Assembly: GCA_039024555.1 (NCBI GenBank)
Contig: JBCCQQ010000038.1
Location: 1 to 59,682, forward strand
Direction: 5' to 3'
DNA from: Cyanobacteria bacterium P01_D01_bin.156
Lineage (GTDB): Bacteria; Cyanobacteriota; Cyanobacteriia; Phormidesmidales; Phormidesmidaceae
Length of the DNA: 59,682 bases
Every line of letters starts with the position of its first letter. Positions within the stretch are counted from its first letter, which is position 1. The notes under the pieces are model-generated. The model was not told the origin of the DNA, searched no databases, and saw only the letters and a list, made by a program, of their open reading frames with translations. Made by a program: the position numbers and the translations under genes. Positions 36,474-45,416 of the stretch are shown piece by piece.

Positions 36474-39110
36474 TTAGGCGGCTTTATCATCTGTCGACTC
36501 AGCCTTTTTGACCTGAAACTTGAGACGGTCCTCAATGTAGTCAATCACCACCTGACTACCTTCCACAAAGGTATTTTCCAGAATTTTGGTCGCAATGGGA
36601 TTTTCTAACTCCCGCTGAATTGCCCGCTTCAGCGGTCGTGCTCCGTACACCGGGTCGTAGCCCTTATCTGACACATAATCAATGGCCGACTCTGACACAT
36701 GGAGCGCAATTTTTTGGTCTGCCAATAGCTTATATAGCCGTTTCAACTGAATAGTGACAATAGACCTGAGCTCATCCTTGCTAAGGGGATGGAAGATAAT
36801 TAAATCATCCACACGGTTCAGAAATTCTGGCCGGAAATGGCCCCGCAAAGCGCCTAGCACTCGCTCCTGCATTTCATCAAACTGGGATTCGTCTCCTGCC
36901 ACATCAAGGATATGATCGCTACCGATATTGCTGGTCATGACAATCACCGTATTGCGAAAGTCCACCGTCCGTCCCTGAGAGTCAGTGATGCGACCATCGT
37001 CCAGTACCTGCAGCAGAATATTAAACACATCTGGATGGGCTTTCTCGACCTCATCCAGTAACACCACAGAGTAGGGGTGGCGACGCACCGCTTCCGATAG
37101 CTGACCACCCTCTTCATAGCCCACATATCCAGGGGGAGCACCAATCAGCCGAGCAACGGAATGCTTTTCCATGTACTCCGACATATCCACCCGTACCAGG
37201 GCTTCTTCCGTATCAAACAAACAGTCCGCTAAAGCCCGGGCCAGTTCAGTTTTACCCACCCCTGTCGGTCCCATAAATAAGAATGAACCAATGGGACGGC
37301 CAGGATCTTTCATACCTGCCCGAGCTCGCCGAATTGCCGCTGCCACAGCCGTCACCGCTTCACTTTGGCCGACTACCCGCTGATGGAGATACCCCTCCAA
37401 CTGCAACAACTTTTGTCGCTCTGTTTCCATTAGCCGGTTAACCGGAATACCTGTCCAGTTAGCAACAATCTCGGCAATGTCCGCTTCGCTTACCTGCTCT
37501 CGCAGCAGCGTGGACCCCTTATTTTGCATCTCTTGTAGCTGACCGTCTAAAATCTCCAGCTCTTGCTGCACGGCTTCCAACCGTCCGTACTTAATCTGGG
37601 CCGCTCGATTCAAGTCATAAGCTCGTTCTGCTTGTTCCACCTGTACCCGCAGCTGATCTTCTTCCTGCTTTAAAGCCGTAATCGCATCTAAGGCTTGCTT
37701 TTCTGCCTGCCACTGGGTCGTTAGCCGCTGTTGTTTAACGGAGAGTTTTTCCATCTCTTTTTGAATGCGGCTGAGGCGCTGCTTAGAGGTGCGCGATGTG
37801 GATTCTTCACCCTGCAAAGAAAGTTTCTCCATCTCTAGCTGGCGCAGGCGTCGATCGATGGTTTCCAGTTCCACCGGTTTGGACGTAATCTCCATCTTTA
37901 ACTTGGCAGCAGCTTCGTCAATTAGGTCAATGGCCTTATCGGGAAGGAAGCGATCGCTAATGTAGCGATCCGATAATGTTGCCGCTGCCACCAGCGCTGA
38001 ATCTACGATCTTTACTCCATGGTGGGCTTCGTAACGTTCCTTAAGACCTCGCAAAATGGAGATGGCATCCTCAACACTGGGCTGACCAATGTATACCTGT
38101 TGAAAGCGACGCTCCAGAGCCGCATCCTTTTCAATATGCTTGCGATATTCATCTAGGGTGGTCGCCCCAATACATCGCAGTTCGCCCCTGGCCAAAATAG
38201 GTTTGAGCAAGTTGCCAGCATCCACATTGCTGTTGCCACCGCCAGCACCTACCACCGTGTGCAATTCATCAATAAACAGCACCACCTGGCCATCGGACTC
38301 AGCGACTTCCTTAAGCACCGACCGTAACCGTTCTTCAAATTCTCCTCGGTACTTAGCGCCAGCAATTAAGCTACCAATATCCAAGGAAATCAGCTGGCGA
38401 TCCTTTAAAGACTCAGGCACATCACCATTGACAATTCGCTGGGCCAATCCCTCGGCAATCGCCGTTTTACCGACACCGGGCTCACCGATCAATACCGGAT
38501 TATTTTTAGTACGTCGTGACACCACCTGAATCACTCGACGAATCTCTTCATCACGGCCAATCACCGGATCGAGCTTGCCATGTTTAGCCTCGTCGGTCAG
38601 ATCACGTCCGTACTTTTCTAAGGCTTCATAGGCATCCTCTGGATTTTGCCCCGTGGCCTTTTGTTTACCTCGCACCTGGTTAATGGCAGTACGGATATCA
38701 GCCACATCAAGCTCAAATCCCTTTAATAGGCGGCGACCAATACGCTCATCTTCGGCAAACCCGAGCAACATATGCTCAACAGAAATAATGTCATCCTGCA
38801 ATAGCTGACGGGCAGCCTCTACCTGGTCCAACATTTTGTCCAGACTTTGTCCAAGGTATAAGCTGCTATCTGCTGCTGCTCGCCCCCGAGGCTGACGTTG
38901 GGAAAACGTTTCTAACTCCTGTAAAAGCAGTTCAGGCTTCAGATTGGCTTTAGTTAAAATGGAATCCGCTAATCCCTGCTGCTCCAGCAGTGCCACCATG
39001 ACGTGCTCTACCTCCAGATACTGTTGACGAAATCGTCTGGCAACATCTTGAGCCTGAACAATGGCATCCCATGCCTTGGCGGTAAACTTATCGGGATTAG
39101 ATGGCTGCAT
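36474..39110 (-). CDS. clpB: ATP-dependent chaperone ClpB
   Basis: Two AAA+ modules ([16 protein letters not shown]), middle coiled-coil domain and GARPLKR motif. Confidence 0.97.
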
Positions 39111-39254: not shown

Positions 39255-39680
39255 CTAAGCCGTAACCACTGCCTCCTCAACCTGGGCTACCGGCTTTTCC
39301 TTTAACTGAATCAGTTCAACCTTATAACCATCGGGATCGGTCACAAACGCGATTACCGTAGTGCCATGCTTCATGGGACCCGGTTCACGCACAACGTTAC
39401 CGCCCCGCGCTTTAATGTCTTCGCAGGTTTTGTAAATATCGTCTACACCAAGGGCAATGTGCCCATAGCCCTCACCGAGATCGTAGGATTCTACGCCCCA
39501 GTTATGGGTAAGTTCTAGAACCGTGTGGTCACTTTCATCGCCATAGCCCACAAATGCCAATGTAAACTTACCGCCTGGGTAGTCTTTCCGACGTAACAGG
39601 GTCATGCCCAGCACATCACAATAAAACTGAAGTGACTTCTCTAAATTACCCACTCGCAACATCGTATGCAGTAAACGCAT
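39255..39680 (-). CDS. gloA: Lactoylglutathione lyase (glyoxalase I)
   Basis: [23 protein letters not shown] and [10 protein letters not shown] motifs. Confidence 0.96.
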
Positions 39681-39915
39681 CGTAACCACTCCCTTAAGCT
39701 CAATTTGCCTTAATCCTAGCGCTGGTTTGGATTAATACTGAATTCGCTAAAGACCCCTAGACAAGTTGATGTGCTTTTCCTTACATTTTGCGCTGTCAAC
39801 CTATCGTTGATGCAAGATAGCACCGTATGCTGGTTTATCGTGCCGATATGCTTTGGCGTTTGCTAAAGATTGGCATATTGCCAGCGAGTCCTAATGCCTG
39901 TTCATTTAAAGTTAA

Positions 39916-41226
<1,311 letters not shown>

Positions 41227-41238
41227 GGAACGGGATAA

Positions 41239-41269
41239 AGGAAAAGCATTTCTAATAAATGCTTTTCCT
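41239..41269. terminator. Hairpin between convergent genes (probable terminator)
   Basis: Perfect 13-bp stem AGGAAAAGCATTT-CTAAT-AAATGCTTTTCCT. Confidence 0.75.
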
Positions 41270-41284
41270 CAAAGTTAAATGAGT

Positions 41285-41623
41285 CTAATCCAAACCGGCC
41301 AATGATTTTGCTGCAGCTACAAAGGGTTTTGCAAGAGGATGACGAATAGCTTCTTCAACAGCGGAAAATCCAAAAGACTGGCATGCTTTCATGATCCGGT
41401 CTCGCAATGTAATGTCTGAACTTAGGCGCTGCGCAATGGCCGTTGATGCTTGAGGAGTGTCTGTTCCGAAATCAGAGCCATACTCTTTTGAAAGTTCTTC
41501 TAAAAGAGAACGAATTTGTTGAACCGTTGCTGTTAAATCAGGCTGTGTATTAAACACAGTTTTGTTACCTAAAACCTGATCACCACCGAAAATGACGGTG
41601 CCAGTTTGATGCAGGTCTGCCAT
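41285..41623 (-). CDS. Small helical protein with an N-terminal GDQVLGNK motif
   Basis: 112-aa ORF with an AAGGTG RBS. The body (VQQIRSLLEELS...TLRDRI...AVEEAIRHP) resembles the helical C-terminal domain of many cyanobacterial pentapeptide-repeat/COR/CHAT proteins. Confidence 0.75.
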   Translation of the reverse strand: MADLHQTGTVIFGGDQVLGNKTVFNTQPDLTATVQQIRSLLEELSKEYGSDFGTDTPQASTAIAQRLSSDITLRDRIMKACQSFGFSAVEEAIRHPLAKPFVAAAKSLAGLD

Positions 41624-41901
41624 TTTACACCTTTAAATTAATGCCTTAGTAAATACTCTAGGAAACTAATTCCTGCACATCTGAGCCCAGGTTAACAAAT
41701 CGAATAAGAATCTGTACGTTGCTAAAAGGCTACTTTAAAGAGCCCGAACCAGGTATCAGATGGTACTGAGGTGCTAAATCAGAGCACTCTCAAACCTAAT
41801 TCCATTATGCCAAACTTGTAAGGTCCGATATGTCTAAATCTAAGTAGCAAGGTTTTTCATAGACCTCTAAGGTTCCAATTTTCATAGAGAGAAAGTATAT
41901 A

Positions 41902-42486
41902 TTAACCTTGTTGAACATTTTTATTTCCTAGAACTTGATCACCATCGTAATAGACTTGCCCAGACTGATTGACTGATTGATCGATTTGATATCTATAATT
42001 TACGTTTACAGACTGCTTATTTATCTGCACAAAATAAGAAAAACTGCTTTCTCGTTCCATTGCACTGGAAAGTTTTTTTACTAATCCTCTAACACCATCA
42101 AGATCATGGGTAACAAAAACTTTGCTATCTCCTGAATTAAAATACATTGCCAATCCATACTCGTAAGATCGTTCAGGTGGCTCTGTAATCAACAGAAATA
42201 TACCGAAGATGCAAGCCATTAAAATCGTATTCTTATTAGGTAAGTCACTCAAGTATGCATAACTCAAAATAGCTAGCACTACGACTATAGAAATTCCTCT
42301 AAGTGTCGGAGCATACGTTTTTCTAATTTCTTTATTATAGGTACTAAAGCCAGTAACGTTGATTAACTGATAGACTTCATCGTTTCCACCTCGATATACG
42401 CGTATTGTTCGATTAGTTATCACTATATTCGCAGAGCTTCTGTAAAAAAATGTTGATGCGCTTTCGGTGTTATCAGCGACTTGCAT
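41902..42486 (-). CDS. DUF6232-like two-TM protein with a Q/N/V-rich C-terminal tail ending in GDQVLGNK
   Basis: IVITNRTIRV...VYQLINVTGF beta region, two TM helices, then YGLAMYFNSG...LSSAME. AT-rich. Confidence 0.75.
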   Translation of the reverse strand: MQVADNTESASTFFYRSSANIVITNRTIRVYRGGNDEVYQLINVTGFSTYNKEIRKTYAPTLRGISIVVVLAILSYAYLSDLPNKNTILMACIFGIFLLITEPPERSYEYGLAMYFNSGDSKVFVTHDLDGVRGLVKKLSSAMERESSFSYFVQINKQSVNVNYRYQIDQSVNQSGQVYYDGDQVLGNKNVQQG

Positions 42487-42767
42487 AAATATAAATGCTT
42501 TGCGATACCCATCATTAGATGTCTGCTAAATTGCTATATGGTTGTAATTCAACTCCTATGCATATCGTATCTAGTACGAGGATGCATGATAACAAGGCTA
42601 GAAATCTGAAAACTTACAGTAACAGCGTCTTAGTTTGTATTCATGCTGTTATCTTGAAAGTGCTCTTAAGGAGACAACAGCAGAGTTACAAGAAGATGTG
42701 TTCATTAATTAGTAAGAACTATTACCTTAAAAGCCTTAGGGCATTAGCTAATGCTTTTTCAAGCGTA

Positions 42768-43418
42768 TCAATCATCATCCGCTGGCAGTGTTTGTAGTGG
42801 AGACGGGCTAATGGGCGTAGTCGGCAGTGGCGATAGTAAACTGTCAGGTGTGGTGGGGATGGGTGTGGTGGTAGATGGGTTTAATGGAGAAATATCACTA
42901 GGTAGCCCGTTGTCAGTGCCATTGATCAGGTCTTGAATATTGGCGGGAATTTCCCCAGGCAGCGTATCGTCTTGTGAGGAACCAGCAGACTGAGTACCCG
43001 CTGGTAAAGTGGCCAGGGCAACCCGATTACCGCCTACGATACGTAGGATATCTAGAACTCGTACCACATCGTCATAACGAGAATCTTTAGCGGCATAGAG
43101 CACCACAATCCCATTAGGATTACCTGTGTAGAAATCATCTACTAAGCCCAGCAAATTCTGTTCTAAAATCGGGTCTTGGTCTAAATAAATGCGACCGATG
43201 GGGTCCACACTGATATAGAGGCGATCGCGACCATCGGTAAGCGCAGCAGGTGGCAAAGCCGCACCAGTATCGGCATTGGGTAAATCTAAACTGATGGCCT
43301 GCTGACGACTGCCAACCGCCGCCAAAATAAAGAATGTCAAAATACAAAAAACGACATCCACTAGGGGTAGCAGCTCAATGTCAATACCGTTTTGTTGGTC
43401 ATCTATATCCAGTTTCAT
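42768..43418 (-). CDS. exbD: ExbD/TolR-family protein with a Pro/Thr-rich tail
   Basis: IELLPLVDVVFCILTFF and YDDVVRVLD motifs. Confidence 0.88.
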   Translation of the reverse strand: MKLDIDDQQNGIDIELLPLVDVVFCILTFFILAAVGSRQQAISLDLPNADTGAALPPAALTDGRDRLYISVDPIGRIYLDQDPILEQNLLGLVDDFYTGNPNGIVVLYAAKDSRYDDVVRVLDILRIVGGNRVALATLPAGTQSAGSSQDDTLPGEIPANIQDLINGTDNGLPSDISPLNPSTTTPIPTTPDSLLSPLPTTPISPSPLQTLPADDD

Positions 43419-43430
43419 AGTGCTGCAACC

Positions 43431-44096
43431 TTAGTTAACTGATACACCTAACTCACTGGGTTTACCTTTACTTAACGCCCAAGCCTGACGATAAAGTAGC
43501 TCCAGCTCACTGCCGGACTGCCGAAAAACTTTTGCCTGGCCAAACACCAGTCCCTGAAACAGGCGATAAAACATCAAACTAACAATGGCAATAATTAACC
43601 CCGTAGCGGTGGTAATTAGAGACTGACCAATCCCTGCTGCGGCTCCGCTGGTAGCGCTACCAATGGCTAAGTCATTCAGATCCAACGACCCTAACGAACT
43701 CATTAAACCAAGCACGGTGCCCAAGAGCCCCAACATAGGAGATACCGCTATCACCAGCTCTAGGACTTTATCACCCCGTCGCATGGCAGCGAGTTCTTCA
43801 TTGGCAGCGGTTTCCAACGCTAAACGAAATACTTCAGGGTCTTGATCCTTAAGCTTGAGGGCAGCGTAGAGAAAACGCCCCATGGGTAAACGATGGGCAC
43901 GTTGAGCAATTTCTGTCGCGGCGGTCCATTCCCGACGAGCAGCTTCTAACACACGGCCAGCTACCTCGCGTTCACGGGTAATGATGCGAGACCAGAACCA
44001 AATTCGTTCAATAATGGTGCCGAGGGCAATCACTGAAAGGAACAGCAGAGGCCACATGGCCACGCCCCCCCTAGCAAATAGTTCAGCAATGTTCAC
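43431..44096 (-). CDS. exbB: MotA/TolQ/ExbB proton channel protein
   Basis: GGVAMWPL, SPMLGLLGTVLG and GIGQSLITTATGL motifs. Confidence 0.9.
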   Translation of the reverse strand: MNIAELFARGGVAMWPLLFLSVIALGTIIERIWFWSRIITREREVAGRVLEAARREWTAATEIAQRAHRLPMGRFLYAALKLKDQDPEVFRLALETAANEELAAMRRGDKVLELVIAVSPMLGLLGTVLGLMSSLGSLDLNDLAIGSATSGAAAGIGQSLITTATGLIIAIVSLMFYRLFQGLVFGQAKVFRQSGSELELLYRQAWALSKGKPSELGVSVN

Positions 44097-44162: not shown

Positions 44163-45416
44163 TTAGTGGGTTTTAGCTGAGACATTGGCCCGGCTGATGG
44201 CTAAATCTAGAATTTCATTGGCGGTGCGATCGCAAACTCCCACAGTGCCTAGCTGCTGCCGCATCGTTTTGTAGCCCTCCACCATTTTCTGGCGTTGGTC
44301 CGGATCATTCAATAAATTGAGCGCCGATTGACAAATGGCCTCGGGGGTCGCATCCCACTGAACGAACTCCGGAACAATCGACTCCATGTTAACGAGATTT
44401 ACCGGCGAAACGTAGGCAGCCGAAAATTTCAAGACAAATTCTGCCACCCAGGCCGTAATTCGATTGAGTCGGTACATCACCACTTGAGGTACCTCCATCA
44501 GCGCAATTTCTAAATTAGCCGTACCTGATTTTGTAATGGCCAGATCTGCCGCCGCAATGGCTAGGGGTTGCTCCTCTTTAGATATCACCCGGCCCTTGAG
44601 TTTATAGTCTTGCAGCGCTTTTTCCAGGGGTTCTCTAAATGCATCTCGGGCTAAGGGAACAAGAAACTCCAAGTCTGGTACCTGGGCCTGGAGCTGTTGC
44701 GCGGCAGTAAACATAATCGGCATTACATAGGTCAGTTCCTGCGGACGAGACGCTGGTAATAGAGTCACAATCGGTACGCTATTACCGATGCCAAAGTGCT
44801 GACGAGCTTTTTGTCTGGCTGAGACTGGGGAATAGTCAGCAAATTTGTCGAGCAGGGGATGACCAACCCAGGACACCTCGCCCCCATGCTTTTGATAGTA
44901 AGTTGCTTCGCCTGGAAAGATGGCTAGTACCCGATCGGCAATGGACAAAATCTTCTCAGTATCCCCTGGCACCATAGACCACACCCACAGCTGTGGAGCA
45001 ATAAAGTAGGCAATCGGAGTCCCAGGATATCGGTGACGAATAAATTGACCGATGGCCACATTAGGCCCCATATAGTCAATCAAGACCACGGCATCAGGAG
45101 GGTTGTCGGCCAAATACTGCTTGGCTCGACGCTGTAGCTTTAGGGCCGCAATGGCATGGGGCAGCGCTTCAAAAATACCAATGGAGCTAATCGGTACCGT
45201 ATCACCGATAAGTTCAGCACCAGCCGCTGCCATGCGCTGTCCCCCCATGGCACTAACGTCAATCGGCATCGAGCGCCGAGCAGCTTGGCGTTGTAGAGCC
45301 TCCACCAGTAAGCTCCCTTGCAAATCACCAGAGACTTCTCCAGTGTGAATAAATACTCGAACAGGGCGAGATGTCGTATCAGTCAATGGCATGGTAAATG
45401 CAGAAAAACCAGACAA
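44163..45416 (-). CDS. lpxB: Lipid-A-disaccharide synthase
   Basis: GEVSGD, APQLWVW, VGHPLLD, LLPASR and KSGTANLE motifs. The true start may be slightly downstream. Confidence 0.95.
   Translation of the reverse strand: MSGFSAFTMPLTDTTSRPVRVFIHTGEVSGDLQGSLLVEALQRQAARRSMPIDVSAMGGQRMAAAGAELIGDTVPISSIGIFEALPHAIAALKLQRRAKQYLADNPPDAVVLIDYMGPNVAIGQFIRHRYPGTPIAYFIAPQLWVWSMVPGDTEKILSIADRVLAIFPGEATYYQKHGGEVSWVGHPLLDKFADYSPVSARQKARQHFGIGNSVPIVTLLPASRPQELTYVMPIMFTAAQQLQAQVPDLEFLVPLARDAFREPLEKALQDYKLKGRVISKEEQPLAIAAADLAITKSGTANLEIALMEVPQVVMYRLNRITAWVAEFVLKFSAAYVSPVNLVNMESIVPEFVQWDATPEAICQSALNLLNDPDQRQKMVEGYKTMRQQLGTVGVCDRTANEILDLAISRANVSAKTH

Follow-up and report, generated by a model that had tools for sequence, protein, structure and literature searches.

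The closest described counterparts of the locus considered here are the Bell/NLR pairs with BASS motifs described by Dyrka et al. (10.1101/2020.01.06.895854) and the Bab/Agp system of E. coli (BASS11; 10.1101/2024.11.07.622273). In the Bell/NLR pairs two adjoining genes, one of them for a small protein, have in common a motif of about 20-25 residues, which is C-terminal in one product and N-terminal in the next; there are several motif families, matched within pairs, and the hosts are filamentous or multicellular bacteria, cyanobacteria included. In Bab/Agp a protein of 109 residues with a C-terminal motif is paired with one of 1,094 residues with an N-terminal motif, the two motifs form amyloid, and proline mutations abolish defense. 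GAPS6 is an anti-phage system of two genes, the second of which encodes a protein with TPR and PIN domains (10.1101/2023.03.28.534373); given the matching lengths and domains, it probably belongs to the same family as Bab/Agp. For bacteria, the available part of a 2026 review mentions just the Bell/NLR BASS systems (PMC13506858). Here we analyze positions 41285-42486 of contig JBCCQQ010000038.1 from Cyanobacteria bacterium P01_D01_bin.156, a stretch of 59,682 nt that we call the window and whose coordinates are used throughout. The locus holds two co-oriented genes, A and B; the product of the first, a DUF6232-like membrane protein, ends in a short motif with which the product of the second, a small protein with a helical domain (the B domain), begins. 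We conclude that the pair is a real module in which the paired-motif principle is combined with partner domains and a sensor class that are new and with a mirrored polarity, and we infer that the coupling is of amyloid nature.

The A-B pair and its relatives share with the Bell/NLR pairs the gene layout, the matching of several motif families within pairs, the small size of one partner and the type of host, and some of the motif types reported below could coincide with the cyanobacterial BASS7-10. Unlike those pairs, A and B gave no match to a Bell domain in the family scans and come without an NB-ARC/NACHT-TPR/WD protein; the partner with the C-terminal motif is a DUF6232 membrane protein (in relatives, a Roc-COR GTPase) and that with the N-terminal motif is a helical domain of about 85 residues. 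An earlier note on the window had described the pair as NLR-free, which is true of A and B themselves, but the relatives are linked to another class of NTPase sensor, the LRR-Roc-COR proteins. Like Bab/Agp, the pair comprises two genes and no NLR, its products carry the same terminal motif, and one of them is a helical protein of about 110 residues. The polarity is mirrored, however, in that the helices of Bab are N-terminal and its motif C-terminal while B has its motif N-terminal and its helices C-terminal, and neither A nor B has a TPR, GreA/B-C or PIN domain.

More distant parallels are HET-S/NWD2 of Podospora and RHIM, in which a short prion-like motif, disordered until activation, allows a sensor to template an effector (PMC13506858, and in part general knowledge); their sequences, domains and kingdom are unrelated to those of the present pair. 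The AP-GTPase (Roc-COR) conflict systems have variable C-terminal effector positions (Kaur et al., PMC8195603), and the B domain resembles the EADs of that account in being small, non-catalytic and located at the "effector position" of LRR-Roc-COR proteins, in occurring also on separate neighboring proteins, and in its fusions to TIR, TRADD-like N, nuclease and AbiTii. The locus differs from AP-GTPase conflict systems in having no LRR-Roc-COR protein, the insert that carries it holding only A and B. Of the 54 Pfam families that 28 B sequences match (E ≤1), the 25 commonest include no named EAD, and homotypic domain-domain contact cannot be the coupling, because many pairs, including that of the window, share only the motif and not the domain. 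Among the matches listed by a literature search on amyloid signaling with bacterial Roc/COR proteins, nothing was on the topic.

Matched terminal motifs in A, B and related pairs

The copies of the motif at the end of A and the start of B (Table 1) are identical at 12 of 18 positions, and the motif is the sole similarity between the whole of A and the whole of B. Alignment of the last 40 residues of A with the first 30 of B gives a local score of 64, which none of 20,000 composition-preserving shuffles reaches (best 43). The octapeptide GDQVLGNK, common to both copies, is encoded GGT GAT CAA GTT CTA GGA AAT AAA in A and GGT GAT CAG GTT TTA GGT AAC AAA in B, that is, with four synonymous differences and no replacement. 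These alignments and shuffles thus bear out what the earlier note had seen, namely a shared terminal motif at these positions in two otherwise unrelated proteins and an octapeptide that differs only in synonymous codons. When all six frames of the 6.6 Mb genome were scanned with a loose pattern, five matches came up, and GDQVLGNK itself is found only in A and B. In the AlphaFold2 models both copies are disordered and stand beside folded domains.

The earlier note had proposed looking beside other DUF6232 genes for a terminal motif that co-varies with a neighboring gene, and such motifs are indeed present. A search for the family PF19744 in a sample of 401 cyanobacterial genomes gave 21 loci in 18 genomes; at 19 of these loci (18 of 20 without the window) an open reading frame (ORF) of 86-160 residues with a B domain lies downstream on the same strand, 27-282 nt away, and an order-level search added four further DUF6232-B pairs. 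The C-terminal 45 residues of the DUF6232 proteins of 23 pairs were compared with the heads of the partners, and the mean score was 64.7 for cognate tails and heads versus 28.4 for non-cognate ones. The cognate head is the best match in 13 of the 23 pairs, and the pairs in which it ranks second to seventh share their motif type with a related pair. With near-duplicates removed, 19 pairs remain and none of 100,000 permutations reaches the observed total. By our reading of the alignments the pairs use about eight distinct motif types, among them GNFIQGD, SRSVNIGG..NLGDG, DKSITIGTNIGSP, IGVGY..QIGG and GDIINQSGSF. The motifs are 18-41 residues long, with 14% Gly, 14.6% Asn, 10.6% Ser, 10.1% Ile, 8.9% Val and 0.8% Pro, and are also poor in Leu. 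In nine pairs, 58 of the 104 identical motif residues use different codons and the nucleotide identity is 48-68%; it is therefore selection on the peptide, and not recent duplication or gene conversion, that maintains the likeness, and what the earlier note had suggested from one octapeptide holds across these pairs.

The two genes and their AT-rich insert

A matches the whole Pfam profile of DUF6232 (PF19744, positions 1-117 of 117) with E 1.6e-5 and 25.7 bits, just below the cut-off of 27.4 bits; the precomputed annotation of its protein gives PF19744.5, and all eight aligned relatives match the family (best E 7e-14). We treat A as a divergent member of DUF6232, in line with the assignment in the earlier note. 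The AlphaFold2 model, with a mean predicted local distance difference test score (pLDDT) of 60.5 and about 70-80 in the core, has strands at residues 15-56, helices at 62-78 and 85-100, strands at 105-126 and a helix at 129-144, and from their hydrophobic sequence we read the first two helices as a putative membrane hairpin. DUF6232 relatives without a B neighbor (L055, L057 and L060; L and P numbers are our labels for the loci and proteins compared) end just past the core in the alignment, the tail being absent. This genome has a second DUF6232-like gene on contig C49 (L151:1315-1938; 208 residues, E 7.9e-5), whose product belongs to a clade ending ...VNMYTGE..., with neither a long tail nor an adjoining B gene, and L055, L057 and L060 are alike in this. 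DUF6232 is a Pfam family without described function, and no paper on it was found in a literature search.

The AlphaFold2 model of B has a mean pLDDT of 70.9, with values below 50 for residues 1-25 and about 84 for the helical domain, whose helices span residues 30-48, 57-69, 71-84, 86-93 and 98-108. No Pfam, NCBIfam or PADLOC family matches B, and Foldseek with the B model finds nothing in the PDB at E 0.001. VIA-align of the model against 48,161 chains gives a best Z of 5.4, which we take as generic helical-bundle likeness and no clear structural relative. The NCBIfam model of ATP synthase subunit c matches the helical part in 10 of 28 B sequences, with a best E of 3.3e-5 and all matches below the cut-off; it was rejected as a local helix-turn-helix likeness. 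The clusters nearest B in the ESM Atlas consist of cyanobacterial proteins without a name and of Roc-COR proteins. A TCAD2 cluster at 0.88 is no more than a lead, and the 25 commonest families of the 54 mentioned above do not include TCAD2. Profile searches of PDB sequences with the A and B alignments gave only chance-level rows, and word-based homologue searches with A and with B returned only the window's own proteins; the relatives of both come from genome searches and a profile search.

A and B are the only genes of an insert of 1.5 kb between the 3' ends of two convergent genes, those for an enolase-like (eno) and an exbD-like protein. The GC content is 0.34-0.39 over 41450-42800, versus about 0.49-0.52 on either side. 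The exbD-like gene was found in all but one of the 21 other genomes of the genus, and in all 20 eno is directly convergent to it, the matched stretches ending 139-461 nt apart; at none of these 20 loci is there DNA resembling 41227-42767. The low GC content and the lack of the insert in 20 other genomes of the genus show that the A-B pair is a recent and self-contained acquisition, and the AT-rich insert that the earlier note had placed between eno and exbD is thus specific to this genome. A simple scan of 41100-42900 gave no terminator-like site. The neighbors of the insert read as ordinary housekeeping genes, and no further defense-type gene adjoins it.

Table 1. Features of the locus in window coordinates
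Feature	Position	Strand	Description
ClpB-like ORF	36474-39110	-	named by reading of the translation
Glyoxalase-like ORF	39255-39689	-	named by reading of the translation
Enolase-like ORF (eno)	39937-41226	+	named by reading of the translation, without a family scan
AT-rich insert, genome-specific	41227..42767	.	1.5 kb, between the 3' ends of eno and the exbD-like ORF; holds only A and B
Gene B	41285..41623 (stop codon included)	-	112 residues; N-terminal motif and five-helix domain without a named family
Helical B domain, residues 30-108 of B	41300..41536	-	five helices (AlphaFold2); profile-profile match to the second clade
Motif copy in B, residues 6-23	41555-41608	-	QTGTVIFGGDQVLGNKTV
A-B spacer	41624..41901	-	278 nt; AGGTG shortly before the ATG of B
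Gene A	41902..42486 (stop codon included)	-	194 residues; DUF6232-like, with C-terminal motif tail
Disordered C-terminal tail of A, residues 146-194	41905..42051	-	pLDDT <50 (AlphaFold2)
Motif copy in A, residues 174-191	41914-41967	-	QSGQVYYDGDQVLGNKNV
DUF6232 core of A, residues 21-143	42058..42426	-	Pfam match; same range from the family search
Predicted transmembrane hairpin of A, residues 62-100	42187..42303	-	hydrophobic helices 62-78 and 85-100 (AlphaFold2)
exbD-like ORF	42768-43418	-	named by reading of the translation, without a family scan
ExbB-like ORF	43431-44096	-	named by reading of the translation
LpxB-like ORF	44163-45416	-	named by reading of the translation

The B domain on Roc-COR and other proteins

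Homologues of B occur in 56 of the 173 genomes of the order, and a profile search with the B domain retrieves 1,664 cluster representatives at E ≤0.001 and 1,163 at E ≤1e-10. In nearly all of the 150 listed out of these 1,664 representatives the B domain stands at the very C-terminus. A Pfam scan of the first 139 of the best 149 representatives, with contexts counted by us, finds Roc, COR-A or COR-B domains N-terminal to B in 30, pentapeptide repeats in 15 and AbiTii in two; a further nine have one context each (TIR with TRADD-like N, protein kinase, DpnII/MboI nuclease, alpha/beta hydrolase, DUF4926, DUF6887, a porin-like stretch, a beta-propeller, and LRR only), and 83 have no family at E 1e-5. 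None of the 139 has DUF6232 fused to the B domain. One of the 30 Roc-COR representatives has EAD7 beside COR-B, with EAD7 and the B domain as separate stretches. Among large B-bearing proteins from the order, 18 of 19 are LRR-Roc-COR proteins whose last 100 residues are the B module. The C-terminal placement has an exception among the representatives in P0003, a Roc-COR protein of 1,847 residues in which the B domain is internal (1358-1473) and followed by TPR repeats.

The stretch before the B helices is nearly always rich in Gly, Asn and Gln, 20-45 residues long and of one of several recurrent types, of which the commonest is TINQYGxGDNIAGDKVMGDKIxTQINN. There is also a second partner clade, whose heads are unrelated but whose helical domain is homologous (hhalign probability 97.7, E 1.7e-12). 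In L039:2020-2421 (minus strand), P0012, P0040 and P0061 the motif is expanded to four to seven GD(K/N)-hydrophobic-x units with a beat of five residues, for example GDRIDGDKVVGDKVAGNKMQ...GDAIAGNK, so the motif can grow by unit repeats. The pattern of pentapeptide repeats is A(D/N)LXX, to which the beat of the commonest motif (GDNIA GDKVM GDKIN) is a misfit; classical pentapeptide repeats were rejected as an explanation, and the Pfam pentapeptide models match neither A nor B.

We compared 38 named loci from records of Leptolyngbyaceae, Leptothoe, Phormidesmis, Chamaesiphon, Nostoc and Snowella, which include 29 small B proteins, 26 of them evaluable. Fourteen of the 29 lie at most 1.5 kb downstream of a protein on the same strand that has a matched C-terminal motif (score at least 50) and no B domain, five follow a gene whose product ends in motif plus B, seven have neither arrangement upstream, and three are at contig ends. 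When seven of the upstream proteins were scanned with Pfam, one proved to be a complete LRR-Roc-COR protein, four were fragments (Roc/COR or COR), and no family was matched by the other two, L100 and L067. This genome itself has a second motif pair, on contig C65 (L045:3269-6176, minus strand), in which a protein of 764 residues with LRR and GTPase motifs, assigned by reading of the sequence without a Pfam scan, ends in IIQQGDGDNVAGDLVEGNKTGT, and a DUF4926-motif-B protein of 189 residues is encoded 44 nt downstream. Its motif variant is unlike that of the window, and two pairs with different variants in one cell would fit orthogonal channels.

At several places the arrangement is more elaborate. 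In three-gene loci a Roc-COR protein ending in the motif is followed by a DUF6883 gene and then by a DUF4926- or DUF2283-motif-B protein (L064:169-4986, L093:3-1896, L125:298-4309, L066:1489-5203 and L106:1018-3359); DUF6883 is named for L064, L093 and L125, the Roc-COR protein of L066 ends in motif plus B, and the middle gene of L106 is of ParE type. These loci resemble a toxin-antitoxin pair in which the receiver module sits on the antitoxin-like half, and they suggest that the B module can also be attached to antitoxin-like domains. In L065 and L099, which are one place (about L099:689-3372), the Roc-COR gene that precedes the gene for the DUF2283-motif-B protein is divided among overlapping frames of 517, 344 and 400 residues and is either a frameshifted or broken copy or an assembly error. 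L067:3561-4899 holds a protein of 260 residues, membrane-spanning by our reading and without a Pfam family, which ends in SGSGDNVAGNK and matches the head (GRGDNVAGNK) of a B protein encoded convergently on the opposite strand, the only matched pair seen that is not co-oriented. Finally, 13 of 17 fused proteins with the commonest motif (P0006-P0045) have a Met 5-6 residues before its Q[YH]G, versus about 13% expected; an internal start that gives a free motif-B product and the trace of a gene fusion are both possible sources.

A proposed mechanism and competing explanations

We put forward a hypothetical mechanism that starts from what was computed (the motif match, conservation of the gene pair, co-variation, peptide-level selection, motif disorder, domain contexts and the insert) and adds to it a direct motif-motif contact, an amyloid nature, a defense role and a polarity as our proposals. 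We propose that A and B form a self-contained, horizontally acquired, defense-type module of two proteins that is coupled in amyloid-like fashion through matched disordered terminal peptides, a reading to which we give about an even chance. A would be a small inner-membrane protein whose DUF6232 fold is interrupted by the two-helix membrane hairpin, so that both of its ends would probably be cytoplasmic, with a flexible C-terminal tail of 49 residues that ends in the motif; B would be a soluble five-helix domain behind the same motif. The two motif copies would pair in a beta-strand assembly, most likely by templated amyloid-like stacking as in HET-S/NWD2, Bell/NLR and Bab/Agp, and a change of state in one partner would be passed on to the other through this assembly. 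We place the coupling in the motif because it is the motif, and not the B domain, that is common to all pairs. The layout, the Gly/Asn/Ser/Val/Ile-rich and Pro-poor composition and the predicted disorder all fit amyloid signaling motifs. The B module, that is, motif plus helical domain, would be a widespread plug-in, and from its occurrence on LRR-Roc-COR, TIR, AbiTii, nuclease and antitoxin-like proteins we propose that it most likely belongs to the conflict or defense machinery of filamentous cyanobacteria.

Regarding polarity, we agree with the earlier note that sensor and effector cannot be told apart from sequence. Our preference is for A as the output, acting by membrane damage, and B as the trigger or relay, because of the analogy with Bell, HeLo and Bab, which are small and membrane-directed with the domain first and the motif last. 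The opposite polarity, with B as the output, is nearly as likely, and against A as output it should be noted that in Roc-COR pairs with only motif plus B downstream, B is the sole candidate output. A more far-reaching version, which we consider possible and well short of probable, is that cyanobacteria hold a large undescribed mirror-image branch of amyloid immune signaling, in which the C-terminal motifs of Roc-COR or DUF6232 proteins template the N-terminal motifs of B proteins, polymerization switches on a toxin in some loci, and orthogonal motif types prevent cross-talk. In some loci the receiver would then be a DUF4926 or DUF2283 antitoxin-like domain beside a DUF6883 or ParE toxin gene, and the sensors would be Roc-COR GTPases, which we take to be the bacterial kin of LRRK2 and DAPK.

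Several observations weigh against the amyloid-coupled defense module as we have drawn it. No confident model or experiment puts the two peptides in contact or in amyloid; a complex prediction with the whole of A, the whole of B and alignments scored 0.00 in both runs, was made without controls and is evidence neither way. The defense role would rest on guilt by association, through the domain contexts and the published description of AP-GTPase systems, and no PADLOC model matches A or B save a 4TM "Effector" row at E 0.034, nor did the family scans find a Bell, HeLo, NACHT or NB-ARC domain in either. As for the known paired-motif families, relatives with the commonest motif weakly match the end of the GapS6a model (85-104 of 104; 6 of 28 B sequences) and the start of the GapS6b model (1-48 of 1089; 4 of 28), with E 0.003-0.07. 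These stretches are the motif-bearing ends of both models, which counts in favor of the proposal; the scores of 11-17 bits, however, fall far short of the curated cut-offs (90 and 850), and the window's own motif, tail or head, matches neither GapS6 model even at E 10; the likeness is a lead and not membership. The A-B spacer (Table 1) is longer than the 27-101 nt of other DUF6232-B pairs, and a simple scan of 41100-42900 found no promoter-like site. The compared genomes are kin, so that the counts overstate independence. Finally, fused relatives retain the motif between B and the domain upstream of it, which would not be expected if the motif served only to link separate proteins.

The rival explanations differ in what they take the shared peptide to be. 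It may be a docking peptide that binds a groove on the helical domain of B, or adds a strand to its partner, in a 1:1 complex without a templated polymer, the tail of A competing with or replacing B's own N-terminal copy and tethering B to the membrane or releasing it. Both motifs are disordered beside a folded helical domain, the motif always directly precedes the B domain, even in fused proteins, as an intramolecular ligand would, and co-variation fits any specific interaction. Nevertheless, AlphaFold2 leaves B's motif undocked on B's helices (pLDDT <50), and a groove should co-vary with its ligand, yet the helical domain is recognizably conserved across clades with unrelated motifs; moreover, Gly/Asn/Ser/Ile/Val-rich, Pro-poor stretches of 18-41 residues are in general more typical of beta-arch motifs than of docking peptides. 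We consider docking improbable, though it is the alternative we take most seriously. Alternatively, the peptide may be the seam at which a mobile cassette of motif plus B joins or splits from other genes, so that proteins ending in the motif are fusion leftovers and the copies need not interact. Fused and split forms of one locus do exist, as the upstream protein of L066 has motif plus B while its homologue in L064 stops right after the motif, and a gene that was once separate, or an internal start, would account for the Met that precedes the motif in most of the fused proteins (13 of 17). Seams, however, need DNA identity, and the motif copies have the low nucleotide identity and divergent codons given above; none of the 139 B representatives is fused to DUF6232 while the matched two-gene form is found at 19 of 21 loci with many motif types; and leftovers would decay rather than co-vary. 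This explanation is in our view unlikely.

Short disordered terminal peptides are often degrons or sorting tags, and the motif stands at the extreme ends of both A and B, so it could be a common tag by which a third factor (a protease, chaperone, modifying enzyme or membrane-targeting system) recognizes each protein. We find this harder still to accept, as the insert carries just two genes, about eight unrelated and pair-matched motif types would need a co-varying third factor in each genome, and the two pairs of this genome use different variants. It might also be argued that low-complexity Gly/Asn-rich stretches can look alike by chance, or, as the earlier note itself had considered, that the two ORFs are fragments of one broken gene with an internal repeat. 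This is refuted for all practical purposes by the shuffles, by the intact ORFs with full-length homologues, by the conserved two-gene form without any DUF6232-B fusion among the scanned representatives, and by the co-variation.

Paired-motif amyloid signaling in bacteria has so far comprised the Bell/NLR pairs and one tested E. coli system. If our proposal is true, the principle would extend to two new partner families, the DUF6232 membrane protein and the B helical domain with its more than 1,600 cluster representatives, and to a different class of sensor, the Roc-COR GTPases. It would also give a testable role to families without a function, namely DUF6232, the B domain and perhaps the DUF4926 and DUF2283 fusions. 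The A-B module is a very small experimental system of two genes, 306 residues and short peptides, and its relatives provide a natural set of apparently orthogonal motif pairs in which the specificity of templated assembly may be studied.

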